A DNA stretch of 19,658 nucleotides, from UHGV virus genome UHGV-0171543; one strand, written 5' to 3'. Made by a program: the position numbers and the translations under genes. Shown here piece after piece: positions 3,282-12,706 of this stretch. How positions within the stretch are numbered: the first letter of the stretch is position 1; each line of letters begins with the position of its first letter. Source of the DNA: a virus. The notes under the pieces are model-generated. The model saw only the letters and a list, made by a program, of their open reading frames with translations. It was not told the origin of the DNA and made no database searches.

Positions 3282-3688
3282 TCATACCTCCTGTCGGTAA
3301 ATCTGACACCCTGACCAATAGCCCAGGCTGTTGTGTACTCGATCAGACTTGCCATACGCTTCACGCTCATCTGTGCGCTACTCTCCCGAATGTTGACGAA
3401 TTCGCCTTCAAGGCCGGGCAAAACATCAGCTTCCTGTTTTGTTGCCACTGCATGACCGCTGATCAACAAAACCTTCCATTGTTCTGGTTTTAACCATTTG
3501 CCGCACCATTGAACCTGACGAGCGATATCCGCCAGCATCGCGTGAAATTTTGCGTTCTGGTCAAGGTTGCGCTTGTAGTCAGTAATGCGGATGGTGACTG
3601 GCTTGTCTTTATCGAGTGGTGTTGCGAGGATGGCGTTGATTGCGGCTTGCTGTTGTTGCTTAGTTCGGAGGAATATTGTTTGCTTCAC
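3278..3688 (-). CDS. ninB: NinB (Orf) family recombination mediator
   Basis: 136-aa ORF with the [13 protein letters not shown] and WKVLLIS pattern, similar to lambda NinB (RSLDQNRKLWACL). Position is upstream of NinE. Confidence 0.75.
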
Positions 3689-3699
3689 TGAACACTCCT

Positions 3700-3891
3700 T
3701 TATTTTTTATGCCTGTAACCCCATTCTTCCAGCAACCTTGCGGCGTACCACCCAAGAAACAAAGGAAAGAACATTACAATGAGATATTCCCCGCCACGGT
3801 CAATGTTCGAAATTGACCAGATTACGATGTAGCCGGTGCAGGACAGGAATATTACAAACCCCAAAAAGCTACTTCGTCGACTCATGCTCAC
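3700..3891 (-). CDS. Small hypothetical membrane protein (two predicted TM helices)
   Basis: 63-aa ORF with hydrophobic stretches FLGFVIFLSCTGYIVIW and IVMFFPLFLGWYAARLL. Overlaps the next gene by 4 nt. Confidence 0.45.
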   Translation of the reverse strand: MSMSRRSSFLGFVIFLSCTGYIVIWSISNIDRGGEYLIVMFFPLFLGWYAARLLEEWGYRHKK

Positions 3892-4208
3892 TCCTTCACT
3901 TTGATTCCAGCAGCGCGGATGTTTTCCTCATAAGCATCCATTGCATCACCGAAGCCATTGGAATAATCAACAGTAAACCCTTTGGCTAATGCTTCTCTGC
4001 TGTCGATAAACTTTGGCGCGGTTATTTCAATAGCTGCTCGCGATGCCTGCCACGTTTGCCAGTGGCCTTGAACATCGTCCATCACGTATTGACCACCAAT
4101 ATTACCGCTGCCAATTTCATGGTGATTTTCAGGGTAACGGATAAGGTCTGAGTATTCGCCTCCACGTCGCAACCAACTTTCTTCAAACTGCTTTCTTGAT
4201 TCGTCCAT
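3888..4208 (-). CDS. Hypothetical protein
   Basis: 106-aa acidic ORF with no motif I recognise. Embedded in the operon between the helicase and ninB. Confidence 0.5.
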   Translation of the reverse strand: MDESRKQFEESWLRRGGEYSDLIRYPENHHEIGSGNIGGQYVMDDVQGHWQTWQASRAAIEITAPKFIDSREALAKGFTVDYSNGFGDAMDAYEENIRAAGIKVKE

Positions 4209-7368: not shown

Positions 7369-7402
7369 ACCGCGTTGTCGGCGGTGCAGATTGATAAAGA
7401 GC
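7369..7402 (-). promoter_or_regulatory. nutR-like site: boxA plus P22-type boxB hairpin
   Basis: In the rightward transcript, CGCTCTTTATCA (boxA-like) is followed by ACCGCCGACAACGCGGT (hairpin with GACAA loop). A second hairpin ACTCATC-GAAA-GATGAGT lies at 7338..7355. Confidence 0.6.
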
Positions 7403-7410
7403 GGTGTTAC

Positions 7411-7620
<210 letters not shown>

Positions 7621-7637
7621 TTAGTACATGCAATCAT

Positions 7638-7705
7638 TATCACCGCTAGAGGTAAAATAGTCAACACGCACGGTGTTAGATATTTATCCCTTGCGGTGAT
7701 AGATT
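7638..7705. promoter_or_regulatory. oR1-oR2-oR3 operators with divergent pR and pRM promoters
   Basis: 17-bp sites TATCACCGCTAGAGGTA (7638..7654), CAACACGCACGGTGTTA (7662..7678), TATCCCTTGCGGTGATA (7685..7701). pR -35/-10 on the minus strand (AGTCAA 7659..7664, ATTATC 7637..7642). pRM -35 TAGATA and -10 TAGATT on the + strand. cI starts at the first ATG, as for the leaderless lambda cI mRNA. Confidence 0.9.
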
Positions 7706-7708
7706 TAA

Positions 7709-8425
<717 letters not shown>

Positions 8426-8432
8426 CACGTAA

Positions 8433-8870
8433 ATGATTAAAGAACGTATTTCTTATATCATTCCGATTGCGATGGATGAAGGCAACCCCGTAACTCCAGT
8501 TCTTATCTATGAAATGGATAAAGACTCCCATGAAGTGGATCTGTCATTTGGCGCTTTTTTTATCGGCCTTAAGGCTACAAAAAAATATTCCATAGGCATT
8601 GAGGTTTTCAATGCTCAAGAAATACCGATACCAATTGACACAAAACTGTACTCCAACCATAAGTTTTTTACGGTAGCAGAAGCCAACGATGGAGAAACCA
8701 TCGTATCAACTTCTATGAGAATTAACTTCCCAAGGGTGAAAATTATCAAGCCTGGGATATTCGAAGTTAGAGCATCACTGGTTAATCCTGAGAAAGGCGA
8801 AGTAATTGATGTAAAAAGTTCGTTTTTTGACGTGAAGATAACAGGATCAGTTCGCGATGAGTTTAGATAA
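8433..8870 (+). CDS. Hypothetical protein A of a two-gene cassette at the rexA position (unknown function)
   Basis: 145-aa ORF starting 7 nt after the cI stop, same strand. No TM segment and no motif I recognise. Confidence 0.7.
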   Translation: MIKERISYIIPIAMDEGNPVTPVLIYEMDKDSHEVDLSFGAFFIGLKATKKYSIGIEVFNAQEIPIPIDTKLYSNHKFFTVAEANDGETIVSTSMRINFPRVKIIKPGIFEVRASLVNPEKGEVIDVKSSFFDVKITGSVRDEFR

Positions 8871-9228
8871 CAAGGTTGCTCAGCTTCGTCCAAATCAAAA
8901 CATATCTCGCCCAATTGGACACTATTACACTGATGATGCATACTCACGGCATGGTGGAGGAAACGGCGGAGGTAACATGCTTGAGGCTAGAGTTGCAAAG
9001 CTAGAGTCTGATGTTGAATACATCAAGCGCGATCTCGCTGAGGTAAAGTCAGATATAAAATCTGTTGATTCTCGTCTGTCAGGTATTGAGACAAGCATTA
9101 GCTCAGCAAAAACCACCATTAAGGCATCTGCGGTCGTTGTCAGTTTCGTGTTCGCATTTTGCGCCTACATTTTTGGAAGTTATGTTTCCAAAATCCTTGA
9201 TGCCTTAAACGGACTCATTCTTAAGTAA
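8857..9228 (+). CDS. Hypothetical membrane protein B of the cassette: Gly-rich linker, amphipathic coiled coil, single C-terminal TM helix
   Basis: 123-aa ORF overlapping gene A by 14 nt. An alternative start at ATG 8977 is preceded by GGAGGT and would give 84 aa. Heptad-like segment LEARVAKLESDVEYIKRDLAEVKSDIKSV, then hydrophobic AVVVSFVFAFCAYIFGSYV near the C-terminus. Confidence 0.7.
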   Translation: MSLDNKVAQLRPNQNISRPIGHYYTDDAYSRHGGGNGGGNMLEARVAKLESDVEYIKRDLAEVKSDIKSVDSRLSGIETSISSAKTTIKASAVVVSFVFAFCAYIFGSYVSKILDALNGLILK

Positions 9229-9235
9229 CACACAA

Positions 9236-9261
9236 CCCGGCCTCAGTGCCGGGTTTTCTTT
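9236..9261 (+). terminator. Rho-independent terminator closing the cI-cassette operon
   Basis: CCCGGC-CTCAGT-GCCGGG stem-loop followed by TTTTCTTT, 8 nt after the gene B stop. Confidence 0.6.
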
Positions 9262-9413
9262 GCCTCTCGATCCCCCTTCCCAACAACACATAACCATTTG
9301 TATTTATTGGAAAACTAATAGATAAAACTTGCTAAACAGTGCAATTCTGATCCCTCACCTACCTAACAATTCACCCCCTGCAAAAAATAAATCCATATAA
9401 AAAACATACAGAT

Positions 9414-9476
9414 AACCATCTGCGGTGATAAATTATCTCTGGCGGTGTTGACATAAATACCACTAGCGGTGATACT
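9414..9476 (+). promoter_or_regulatory. oL3-oL2-oL1 operators and pL promoter
   Basis: AACCATCTGCGGTGATA (9414..9430), TATCTCTGGCGGTGTTG (9434..9450), TACCACTAGCGGTGATA (9458..9474). pL -35 TTGACA (9448..9453) and -10 GATACT (9471..9476) with 17-bp spacing. Near-identical to lambda pL as recalled. Confidence 0.85.
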
Positions 9477-9521
9477 AAACACATCAGCAGGACGCTGGAA
9501 GCCAAACGGAACAGATTGGCA

Positions 9522-9720: not shown

Positions 9721-10029
9721 ATGACGGTAATCGTGTACGGAAAATCAACATTTGCAGGAAATGCCAAAACTCGCCGTCATGAGCGGCGCAGAAAGCTGGC
9801 TATCGAGCGTGATGCTATATGCAACATCATCGATTCGATCTTCGGTACAGACAGTGATGAACCTTTTCAGGAAAAACCGAGAAAGCGTTTAAATCTTTCT
9901 GAAAAAGCAATATCACTCAGCAACATTCGTAACCAAAATACCGATGAATGCAGTGGAAGTATTTGTCTTCCAAATGTAGCTCTTTACGCGGCAGGCTACA
10001 GGAAATCAAAACAACTGACGGCGAGATGA
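9721..10029 (+). CDS. N: N-family transcription antiterminator, P22 gene 24 type (arginine-rich motif)
   Basis: 102-aa ORF, first gene after pL, with GAGGA RBS. N-terminal GNAKTRRHERRRKLAIER is the P22 N arginine-rich boxB-binding peptide as recalled. Not lambda N. Confidence 0.85.
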   Translation: MTVIVYGKSTFAGNAKTRRHERRRKLAIERDAICNIIDSIFGTDSDEPFQEKPRKRLNLSEKAISLSNIRNQNTDECSGSICLPNVALYAAGYRKSKQLTAR

Positions 10030-10044
10030 TAAATCATTTGCTAA

Positions 10045-10626
10045 TTACTTGTTTTTGCCATGCTTATCCTGAGCGATAAGTTCATCCATAAGACTGTCTT
10101 TCTTCCCAGCAAACCTAATGTAGCACTCATTTCTATAGCGTTCCGGGATAACAAAACGGTCGATTTCAGGATATCCAGTAGCAGAAGGTATCCGAATAAG
10201 AAGCCCTTTTTCGAGCAATGAGATTGCTTCAGGGCTTCCCTTTTCTGTCTTTAGCTGGTTATTCGCGGCTACAGCGAATGCCAAATACGCTCTTTCTCCA
10301 AGAGTTAACGAATCAAACAAATCTTGCACATATTTTTCTTCTTTAGATTTGCGCTTCTGAGCAGCGGATACCTCAATTCTTTCAGTCACAGCGTGATAAG
10401 CGGAATTAACAACACCGTTAAGCACATAGCTAACGCAGAACAACAGGATGTAATACATCCAATAATGAGGAAGGATTTCTGGATTATGCAGGTTTATCCA
10501 TTCTTTTACGCTTACCGGCATAACAATAATCAATATGATCAGGATGATTAGCATATGAATCAACTGTTTAAGTGTCATTCCTTGCAGGAAAAAATGCATT
10601 AGTTCCTGCCACCATGAGTTGTTCAT
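10045..10626 (-). CDS. sieB: Superinfection exclusion protein B
   Basis: 193-aa ORF opposite in orientation to N, with an N-terminal hydrophobic segment (LIHMLIILIILIIVMPV). Matches lambda SieB as recalled. Confidence 0.8.
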   Translation of the reverse strand: MNNSWWQELMHFFLQGMTLKQLIHMLIILIILIIVMPVSVKEWINLHNPEILPHYWMYYILLFCVSYVLNGVVNSAYHAVTERIEVSAAQKRKSKEEKYVQDLFDSLTLGERAYLAFAVAANNQLKTEKGSPEAISLLEKGLLIRIPSATGYPEIDRFVIPERYRNECYIRFAGKKDSLMDELIAQDKHGKNK

Positions 10627-11737: not shown

Positions 11738-12706
11738 ATGAGTGAAGTAACAGATTTAGTTGTTATTGAAAAAGCAAATGCAATGACTGTATTTCAGTCT
11801 GCCGACCAGATTGAAGAAATCCTTCAAAAGGTTGAACGTGAAGTTATGTCCTTTGTGCCTGATATCACAACGGCAAAGGGCAGAAAGGAGATCGCTTCTC
11901 TGGCGTATAAAGTTGCGCAGACGAAAACATATCTCGATGGTCTTGGCAAAGACCTTGTTGCTGAACTGAAGGAAATTCCAAAGCTAATTGATGCCAACCG
12001 CAAGACAGTGCGCGATCGCCTTGATGAACTGAAAGCCAAGGCACGCCAGCCTCTTACTGATTATGAAGAGGAACAGGCGCGGATTAAAGCCGAAGAAGAA
12101 GCTAAGGCAGCAGCTGAAGCTCTCGCAAAGCAAATTGAGTCTGACCATGAAATAGCGATTTTGATGGATCGCGAATTTGACCGCCAAAGAGAAGAGGCAA
12201 GACTCAAAGCGGAGCAGGAAAAGCGAGAGCATGAAGAACGCTTAAAAAGAGAAGCTGAAGAGAAAGCCAGAGCAGAAGCCGAAGCAAAGGCAAAAGCCGA
12301 AATTGAAGCAGCAGCAAGGCGAGAAGCAGAAGCTAAGGCCGCAGCGGAACGTGCAGAGCGTGAACGCATTGAAGCCGAGCAACGAGCACAGCGCGAAGCA
12401 AAAGAGGCAGCAGAACGAGCTGAAAGAGAAAAGCAGGCGGCAATTGAAGCAGAACGCCGAAAAGCACAGGAGGAGGCTGAACGAATCCGGCGCGAGGCTG
12501 AAGCAAAAGAGCAAGCCAGAATAGCAGAAGAAAAAAGAATCAAGGACGAAGAAGAGCGTAGAGCAAAGGATAAAGCTCACCGGAAAGAAGTAAATAACAA
12601 AATACTTGCTGACCTTATCAAGGTTGGCGCATCAGAAGATGTTGCTAAAAATATCATAACAGCCATCGTAAAAGGCGAAGTATTCGCAACAAAAATAACC
12701 TACTAA
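11738..12706 (+). CDS. Hypothetical protein with a long K/E/A/R-rich low-complexity coiled-coil core between N- and C-terminal domains
   Basis: 322-aa ORF with GGAGG RBS. The central region of roughly 170 aa is an EAEAKAKAE/AERAERE-type charged repeat; the flanks are ordinary sequence. The repetitive DNA creates spurious ORFs on the opposite strand. Confidence 0.65.
   Translation: MSEVTDLVVIEKANAMTVFQSADQIEEILQKVEREVMSFVPDITTAKGRKEIASLAYKVAQTKTYLDGLGKDLVAELKEIPKLIDANRKTVRDRLDELKAKARQPLTDYEEEQARIKAEEEAKAAAEALAKQIESDHEIAILMDREFDRQREEARLKAEQEKREHEERLKREAEEKARAEAEAKAKAEIEAAARREAEAKAAAERAERERIEAEQRAQREAKEAAERAEREKQAAIEAERRKAQEEAERIRREAEAKEQARIAEEKRIKDEEERRAKDKAHRKEVNNKILADLIKVGASEDVAKNIITAIVKGEVFATKITY

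Follow-up and report, generated by a model that had tools for sequence, protein, structure and literature searches.

The interval between cI and N of lambdoid prophages is a classic site of exclusion genes, where many cassettes continue to be annotated as 'hypothetical'. Here we asked what the two genes, A and B, that occupy this position in the virus genome UHGV-0171543 might do for the prophage that carries them. The stretch of DNA analysed (hereafter the window) is 19,658 nucleotides long and covers the early part of a lambdoid/P22-like prophage of mosaic make-up, in an orientation opposite to that of the standard lambda map. A sequence-only reading of this DNA had proposed, by analogy with two-component abortive-infection systems, that A is a soluble protein which may sense a phage cue and activate a membrane protein, its partner. 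The best-supported reading of the present analysis is that A-B is an exclusion or abortive-infection cassette, built of uncharacterised parts and carried in a repressor operon. More specifically, we assign a probability of roughly 45% to the proposal that A is the soluble, cytoplasmic subunit, acting in recognition or regulation, of a module (A-B) that lysogens express for exclusion or abortive infection and that would be like RexAB of lambda but not homologous to it.

The cI-A-B unit in the rexAB position

The minus strand of the window carries the replication genes O and DnaB, then cII and cro. The cro gene (7411-7611, minus strand) borders the OR/PR/PRM control region (7612..7711), which lies between cro and cI and harbours a match to a PR-like promoter (7664..7636, minus strand). 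The first gene of the operon, cI (7712..8425, plus strand), encodes a 237 aa repressor of the lambda immunity type (Pfam Peptidase_S24, 5e-28; HTH_3, 4e-11). The cI/cro/operator block shares 92-93% nucleotide identity with lambda, window 7397-8421 corresponding to lambda 38255-37231 at 92.8%. Gene A (8433..8870, plus strand) follows the cI stop codon (8423-8425) after a gap of 7 nt, and its last 14 nt (8857-8870) overlap the start of B (8857-9228, 123 aa). An intrinsic terminator, with an 8-pair stem followed by a T-run (9234..9255, plus strand), is the counterpart of lambda t_imm; it lies directly after B and closes the cI-A-B unit. The next operon, a lytic one, starts at the PL promoter inside OL (9448..9476, plus strand; match to TTGACA-17-GATACT). 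A promoter scan found no promoter-like site between cI and A, and no internal promoter was found in cI-A-B. From this layout we infer that cI, A and B are co-transcribed in lysogens from PRM, the presumed promoter, placed by its homology to lambda. No Shine-Dalgarno motif was evident in the 20 nt upstream of A, and the translational coupling of A to cI that had been noticed earlier appears plausible from the spacing of the two genes.

Comparison with lambda by BLASTN defined the limits of the cassette. Homology stops at position 8421 of the window, in the last codons of cI, and restarts at 9234, at the rexB stop codon and t_imm; from there, window 9234-9495 is 90.5% identical to lambda 35826-35570, with the terminator at the start of this block. 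The lambda segment lost between these points, 37230-35827, comprises the cI-rexA spacer, rexA and rexB (1.4 kb), and in its place stand 812 bp (8422..9233, plus strand) with no similarity to lambda. Since homology stops at the end of cI and restarts at the rexB stop codon/t_imm, A-B replaces rexAB precisely. In other lambda-immunity phages the same slot is occupied by rexAB, hicAB or other hypothetical genes. The cassette is rare in E. coli, being present in 16 of 5,426 complete genomes, including EPEC E2348/69 and UMNF18, and none of 50,697 phage records covered at least 80% of a query made of positions 7400-9500. For two E. coli genomes, H50 and H51, the match extended over no more than about 70% of the cassette and came in two pieces.

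The resemblance of A-B to RexA/RexB extends beyond position. In both cases a soluble protein is followed by a small membrane protein, just downstream of cI, in a PRM operon that ends at t_imm, and both pairs are low in GC and moron-like. The proteins themselves are different. RexB, described as having four TM segments, is a 144-aa membrane protein, whereas in B a long coiled coil is combined with a single TM helix at the C-terminus. RexA is 279 aa long and is reported to bind DNA (PMC12894663), whereas A is a 145-aa beta-sandwich. Profiles of A and B compared with RexA and RexB gave hhalign probabilities of 0.1-0.4% (0.39% for B against lambda RexB), and homology of the two pairs was rejected on these values, all below 0.5%. 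The RexA/RexB system is further characterised by abortive exclusion of T4 rII and other phages, for which both of its genes are needed. The positional analogy to rexAB is not new, as Villafane et al. drew it in 2008 for genes 45/44 of Salmonella phage epsilon34, which are placed like rexA/rexB and were then without database matches (PMC2629481).

A cassette expressed by the prophage could also serve the lysogen in a manner unrelated to phages, by altering envelope physiology, stress tolerance or virulence of the host. Morons expressed from prophages include such lysogenic conversion genes, for example bor and lom of lambda (PMC7067206), and the cassette is present in pathogenic E. coli such as E2348/69. 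We consider such a role improbable, as this slot is known in the literature for exclusion or defence genes such as rexAB and bstA, neither A nor B shows any sign of secretion or surface exposure, and the swapping of soluble and membrane modules described below is typical of conflict systems.

Sequence, composition and predicted fold of A

Gene A had been described earlier as a 145-aa open reading frame at 8433-8870, free of TM segments and of any recognisable catalytic motif. The open reading frame was confirmed on the plus strand with an ATG start, and its product is acidic (pI 5.4), predicted to be cytoplasmic and all-beta. The Kyte-Doolittle maximum over 19 residues was 0.81 for A as compared to 2.1 for B, in agreement with the absence of a TM segment. 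No significant Pfam, NCBIfam or PADLOC match was obtained with A; the single Pfam match was noise (E=0.054), and NCBIfam and PADLOC returned none. A PDB sequence search likewise gave no match, and in PHROGs A matched phrog_5893 alone, a family without known function. Clear homology to a structural or regulatory housekeeping protein of phages would have spoken against the role proposed for A; it was looked for in Pfam, NCBIfam, PADLOC, PHROGs and by fold comparison, and none was found.

The sequence-only reading had also counted by hand 23 G+C in the first 60 nt of A and 27 of 60 at the start of cI, suspected a lower GC content of A, and suggested a sliding-window and codon-usage comparison with the rest of the prophage. 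Both counts were exact and the low GC proved real. The value for A is 37.9% (GC3 35.6%), as compared to 43.7% for cI and 45.9% for the whole window, and no 438-nt stretch of the window is lower (0.1 percentile). The same trend was seen in related loci, where the GC of the A-family gene was below that of the rest of the locus in 58 of 58 distinct loci, with a mean deficit of 10 points, and that of B was also lower, by 8 points. In its use of rare codons, A was no different from its neighbours. By its base composition, A appears to be moron-like.

Comparisons with unsaturated dS gave dN/dS values of 0.07-0.2 for A (for example, dN 0.075 and dS 0.49 between the A genes of loci L001 and L146), and by this sequence measure A is under purifying selection. 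The possibility that A is a spurious open reading frame was rejected on the basis of its conservation and these dN/dS values. The A family is a small one. A word-indexed search of 5.8 billion proteins returned 20 clusters of A, all from Enterobacterales (E. coli, Salmonella, Edwardsiella and Dryocola). An exhaustive HMMER profile search of 1.84 billion representative proteins returned 19 matches, of which about a dozen were small proteins of 131-149 aa. The rest were single repeats in giant multi-repeat proteins, which we read as generic beta-sandwich similarity to A. No paper in the literature searched names the accessions of the proteins, the PHROG ids or DUF6941.

The structure of A was modelled as an Ig-like beta-sandwich of two sheets with a pLDDT of 87.5. 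In fold comparison its neighbours were Ig-like binding domains, on which the model could be superposed. No enzymatic family was matched by A in Pfam, PHROGs, PADLOC, NCBIfam or the PDB sequence search. As a single Ig-like beta-sandwich without catalytic signature, A is therefore read as a probable binding module on the strength of the predicted structure.

Among predicted viral structures, the best matches of A were full-length uncharacterised phage proteins of 134-142 aa. The second-best full-length match was a 134-aa protein of Anoxybacillus phage A403 (Foldseek E 2e-8, TM 0.65-0.70), which passes the threshold of Pfam DUF6941 (PF22091) with 29.3 bits against a cut-off of 27, and which is scored at 34-36 bits by A-family profiles. 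Matches to DUF6941 below threshold were obtained with 3 of 19 A-family members (best E 0.002). A of the window itself gave no DUF6941 match even at E<=1, short of the gathering threshold of 27 bits. A probably forms a distant branch of DUF6941, to which it is linked, transitively and remotely, by the A403 protein and the sub-threshold relatives.

Pairing of A with B and exchange of their parts

The product of B has two distinct halves. Codons 1-39 (8857..8973, plus strand) encode a predicted disordered N-terminal peptide and a Gly-rich joint (HGGGNGGG), with residues 1-36 mostly modelled at pLDDT <50 (segments 1-6, 14-16 and 18-36). Codons 40-123 (8974..9228, plus strand) encode the coiled coil, the C-terminal TM helix and a tail of 12 aa. 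Residues 40-122 were modelled as one continuous helix, the last third of which is the TM segment (about residues 92-118; Kyte-Doolittle maximum 2.1 at residues 92-110), with the 12-residue tail after it. No second hydrophobic segment was present in B, the single one being at the C-terminus. The conserved coiled-coil motif of B is MLEARVAKLESDVEYIKRD, and nearly all complete B-type proteins follow the same plan of a short N-terminal peptide, a Gly-rich tract, M(L)E-RVAKLE(S/A)DV-YI and a C-terminal TM helix. By its modelled topology, B is predicted to be a tail-anchored protein of the inner membrane.

Such a layout brings to mind Pfam XhlA, a PBSX-type phage membrane protein in which, as in B, a short coiled coil leads into a TM helix at the C-terminus. 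Some NCBI records of B homologues are indeed named 'hemolysin XhlA', a membership not borne out by the Pfam threshold. XhlA (PF10779) membership of B was rejected, as B scored 21.6 bits (E 2.4e-4) against a cut-off of 34.7, and five other B variants, including other C-terminal types, gave no XhlA match at E<=0.01. The setting is also unlike that of XhlA, since B is located in an immunity operon and not beside a holin or endolysin gene. PADLOC-DB v2.0.0 (2023) gave solely coiled-coil noise with B (CorA-like, E 0.0047; LmuB), 0 matches with A, and none with variant B proteins or with the alternative partner proteins described below.

We weighed on these grounds a toxin/antitoxin-like or lysis-control pair, in which B is a membrane toxin or an XhlA-like holin accessory and A is its neutraliser, the pair acting in prophage stability or lysis timing without sensing any foreign phage. 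The neutraliser-first gene order, the 14-nt overlap, the sub-threshold resemblance of B to XhlA and the 'hemolysin XhlA' name would all suit it. It nevertheless seems very unlikely to us. Type II toxin-antitoxin pairs have a DNA-binding upstream protein and an autoregulated promoter of their own, whereas A lacks HTH, RHH or AbrB domains for DNA binding and no separate promoter precedes the pair; A-B belongs to an immunity operon, silenced upon induction, and not to a lysis cassette; and no B variant tested reaches the Pfam XhlA threshold. In addition, one related locus (L147, IMGVR_UViG_2541047671_000003, about 3501-3934) has an intact B next to an A homologue that is apparently frameshifted, its tblastn match spanning 434 nt and its longest open reading frame 69 aa. 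This frameshift could be a sequencing error, or B could be tolerated without A, and the broken A beside an intact B argues weakly against B being strongly toxic or lethal without A.

Beyond the window, 155 related loci, anchored on B or on A, were gathered from one-genome-per-species contigs and IMG/VR. A B-type gene was located directly downstream of the A-family open reading frame in 119 of 123 loci, the remaining 4 being ORF-start artefacts or a truncated contig. Pairing of A with B is obligate in this collection, and it persists down to about 20-25% identity of A, for example in Serratia, Symbiopectobacterium, Phaseolibacter and Entomohabitans. The gene upstream of the pair almost always encodes a repressor-type DNA-binding protein. 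These proteins are diverse and unrelated, with several S24+HTH families, short HTH-only proteins and Arc-like RHH proteins among them. With so many unrelated repressors upstream, what is constant is therefore expression in the lysogen, and not one particular repressor.

Expression in lysogens and a membrane anchor would equally be expected of superinfection exclusion that leaves the cell unharmed, in the manner of SieA or HK97 gp15, with A-B blocking genome entry at the inner membrane. The pair is borne by a prophage, and such genes are common in P22-like and lambdoid phages, this window carrying sieB as well. We judge this version unlikely from the predicted topology, as all of A and almost all of B would be in the cytoplasm, neither has a signal peptide, and no more than roughly 12 residues of B lie past the TM helix. 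An injection apparatus in the periplasm would not easily be blocked by such a pair.

Comparison of closely related loci showed that the two halves of B are inherited separately. Locus L106 is 99.2% identical to the window at the nucleotide level from cI through A to position 8973, and is then unrelated until the terminator. This locus stands for 7 loci, which have the same cI, A and B codons 1-39 and a different coiled-coil/TM module. The epsilon34 locus, compared with the window, has its breakpoint also at 8973, just past the Gly tract, so that two independent comparisons gave the same point. The protein gp45 of epsilon34 is a true homologue of A over its full length (73% amino-acid identity), and gp44 has the N-terminal peptide and Gly joint of B, with another coiled-coil/TM module beyond the joint. 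Both genes follow directly after a different S24 repressor, gp46, and gp40/39 of g341c and phage NM-3 group with gp45/gp44. The shared breakpoint at 8973 makes A plus B codons 1-39 the unit of inheritance. The annotated start of gp45 in epsilon34 (L001, 2968-3438; 156 aa, MMDKGCLGDIQ...) lies 11 codons before the MIKERISY start of the E. coli protein and overlaps the repressor stop; the true start in the Salmonella phages may differ from the annotated one.

The same pattern was seen across A-paired systems. Identity of A correlated with identity of the B N-terminal peptide (Spearman 0.50) as compared to 0.09 with that of the C-terminal module. In pairs of systems with A at least 60% identical, the N-terminal peptide was at least 50% identical in 97% of cases and the C-terminal module in 41%. 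About six sequence types of C-terminal module, sorted by eye, are found behind near-identical A and N-terminal peptide. This co-inheritance fits a docking of A onto the N-terminal peptide of B; it could also be plain linkage, with the tract of Gly codons prone to recombination. The partnership of A with a membrane protein, as proposed by the sequence-only reading, gains from the fixed A-B unit, the rexAB slot, the distinct composition and the lack of any housekeeping identity of A, and the tracking of the N-terminal peptide by A fits a physical partnership; the sensing and activating part of that proposal is retained here in conditional form.

Conservation of A together with the N-terminal peptide, in front of a membrane half that comes in about six types by eye, would also suit a generic anchor. 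In that case the roles may be reversed as compared to those we favour, A being the active anti-phage factor that blocks a phage protein, and B a membrane tether whose N-terminal peptide keeps A sequestered or in position. The gp30/gp31 pair of mycobacteriophage Butters provides a precedent (PMC12894663), and A has a pure binding fold. The core motif of B (RVAKLESDV.YI) is, however, conserved well beyond the needs of an inert anchor, as are, in type I, the TM helix and the tail of 12 aa, and B-type proteins retain the core while the soluble partner switches class. The reversed arrangement thus has a low probability in our estimate.

The switch of partner class was evident in 86 distinct combinations of partner and B. 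A-family proteins were the upstream partner in 60 of these. In 15 it was a small zinc-ribbon protein bearing a pair of CxxC motifs, in 4 a protein marked by the sequence FGYSSFG, and the remaining 7 had some other partner or none. Neither the zinc-ribbon nor the FGYSSFG partners matched any Pfam or PADLOC family. The zinc-ribbon partners (loci L006, L007, L009, L010, L013, L015, L019, L020, L024, L049, L073-L076 and L100) are proteins of 81-154 aa that stand in place of the A-family protein, in Vibrio, Shewanella, Pseudoalteromonas, Symbiopectobacterium, Desulfobacterota MAGs and others; examples behind S24-type repressors are L013, L015 and L019. The partners of the third class (L069, L102, L103 and L104) are about 90 aa long and are encoded between an Arc-like RHH repressor and the B-type gene.

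A pair of similar build is present in Anoxybacillus phage A403 (L160, 35864-36822). Its DUF6941 A-like gene (35864-36268) is followed by an overlapping-start gene for a tail-anchored protein of 184 aa that has a coiled coil and, at its C-terminus, a TM helix. Both genes belong to the lysogeny module and lie between the integrase gene on one side and the immunity repressor/ImmA genes on the other. The pair looks like a remote Gram-positive counterpart of A-B. Ahead of it are two genes, one for a bPH/SHOCT protein and the other for an SNase/Excalibur nuclease with a membrane anchor.

A wider interpretation of these loci is offered tentatively, and we hold it to be somewhat doubtful. A-B may be the founder of a widespread, uncatalogued family of modular two-gene systems in immunity operons, carried by temperate phages that infect Proteobacteria and remotely represented in one Bacillaceae phage. 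Interchangeable recognition proteins (DUF6941-like beta-sandwich, zinc ribbon and others), each with its cognate docking peptide, would be shuffled onto interchangeable tail-anchored coiled-coil effectors at the Gly-rich/'RVAKLESDV' joint, giving a combinatorial sensor-effector defence.

Proposed mechanism, precedents and genomic neighbours

A two-part sensor/effector design would be expected to show such swapping of soluble and membrane modules, and A-B is a credible candidate for a two-gene anti-phage module. In the mechanism that we favour, A would hold the N-terminal peptide of B, and the complex would be kept inactive in this way. A component of a superinfecting phage would engage A and alter its contact with B, upon which the coiled-coil/TM modules of B could assemble in the membrane. 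Membrane integrity or energisation would then be compromised, and the infection aborted or excluded. We infer each of the main elements of this scheme, namely the binding of A to B, the sensing of phage, the damage to the membrane and the defence phenotype. Prophage-expressed pairs of a soluble and a membrane protein are reported in lambda RexAB, Sbash gp30/31 and RexAB of P. putida (RexABpp) (PMC6426596, PMC12894663), and CarolAnn gp44/43, another RexAB-type pair, serves as functional precedent alongside Sbash gp30/31 and RexABpp. Some considerations count on the other side. A tail-anchored protein with a single TM helix forms no obvious channel, neither protein matches any PADLOC v2 defence model, and neither is homologous to RexA or RexB.

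The analysis turns an orphan cassette into a defined target, with an obligate pair, a confident fold for A, and a domain joint of B mapped at 8973. Nature has already provided the swaps, one A being found with different membrane modules and one membrane module with different classes of partner, which makes the system experimentally tractable. Many candidate defence systems have already been described. If A-B is protective, it would be an analogue of RexAB assembled from unrelated parts, and its chimeras would help to work out how gating of a membrane effector by a soluble sensor is brought about, which for RexAB itself has been a question for decades. If it is not protective, the widespread co-expression of the pair with repressors needs another explanation.

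Regulation in the prophage is mosaic, as the immunity region is lambda-like while the early-left genes (Erf, SSB, HNH) are not those of lambda. Past OL/PL lies an N gene of the P22 type (9721-10029; Pfam N_peptide, 3.9e-40), followed by sieB (10045-10626, minus strand; Pfam SieB, 1.4e-25; phrog_1301) and then by cIII/kil, Erf, SSB and HNH genes. The N protein carries an arginine-rich motif (GNAKTRRHERRRKLAIERD) of the P22 type. The superinfection-exclusion gene sieB, just past N on the opposite strand, gives the prophage a second, known exclusion locus less than 1.5 kb from the A-B cassette. Further along, an open reading frame at 11738-12706 (plus strand, 322 aa) matched solely phrog_1376 and phrog_21365, both of unknown function, and its counterpart in the E2348/69 prophage is annotated as hypothetical. 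The central 200 or so residues of its product are an almost pure charged repeat of E, R, K and A (EAKAKAE...), which resembles a single alpha-helix and gives rise to the AT skew, reaching 0.75, seen in the composition profile.
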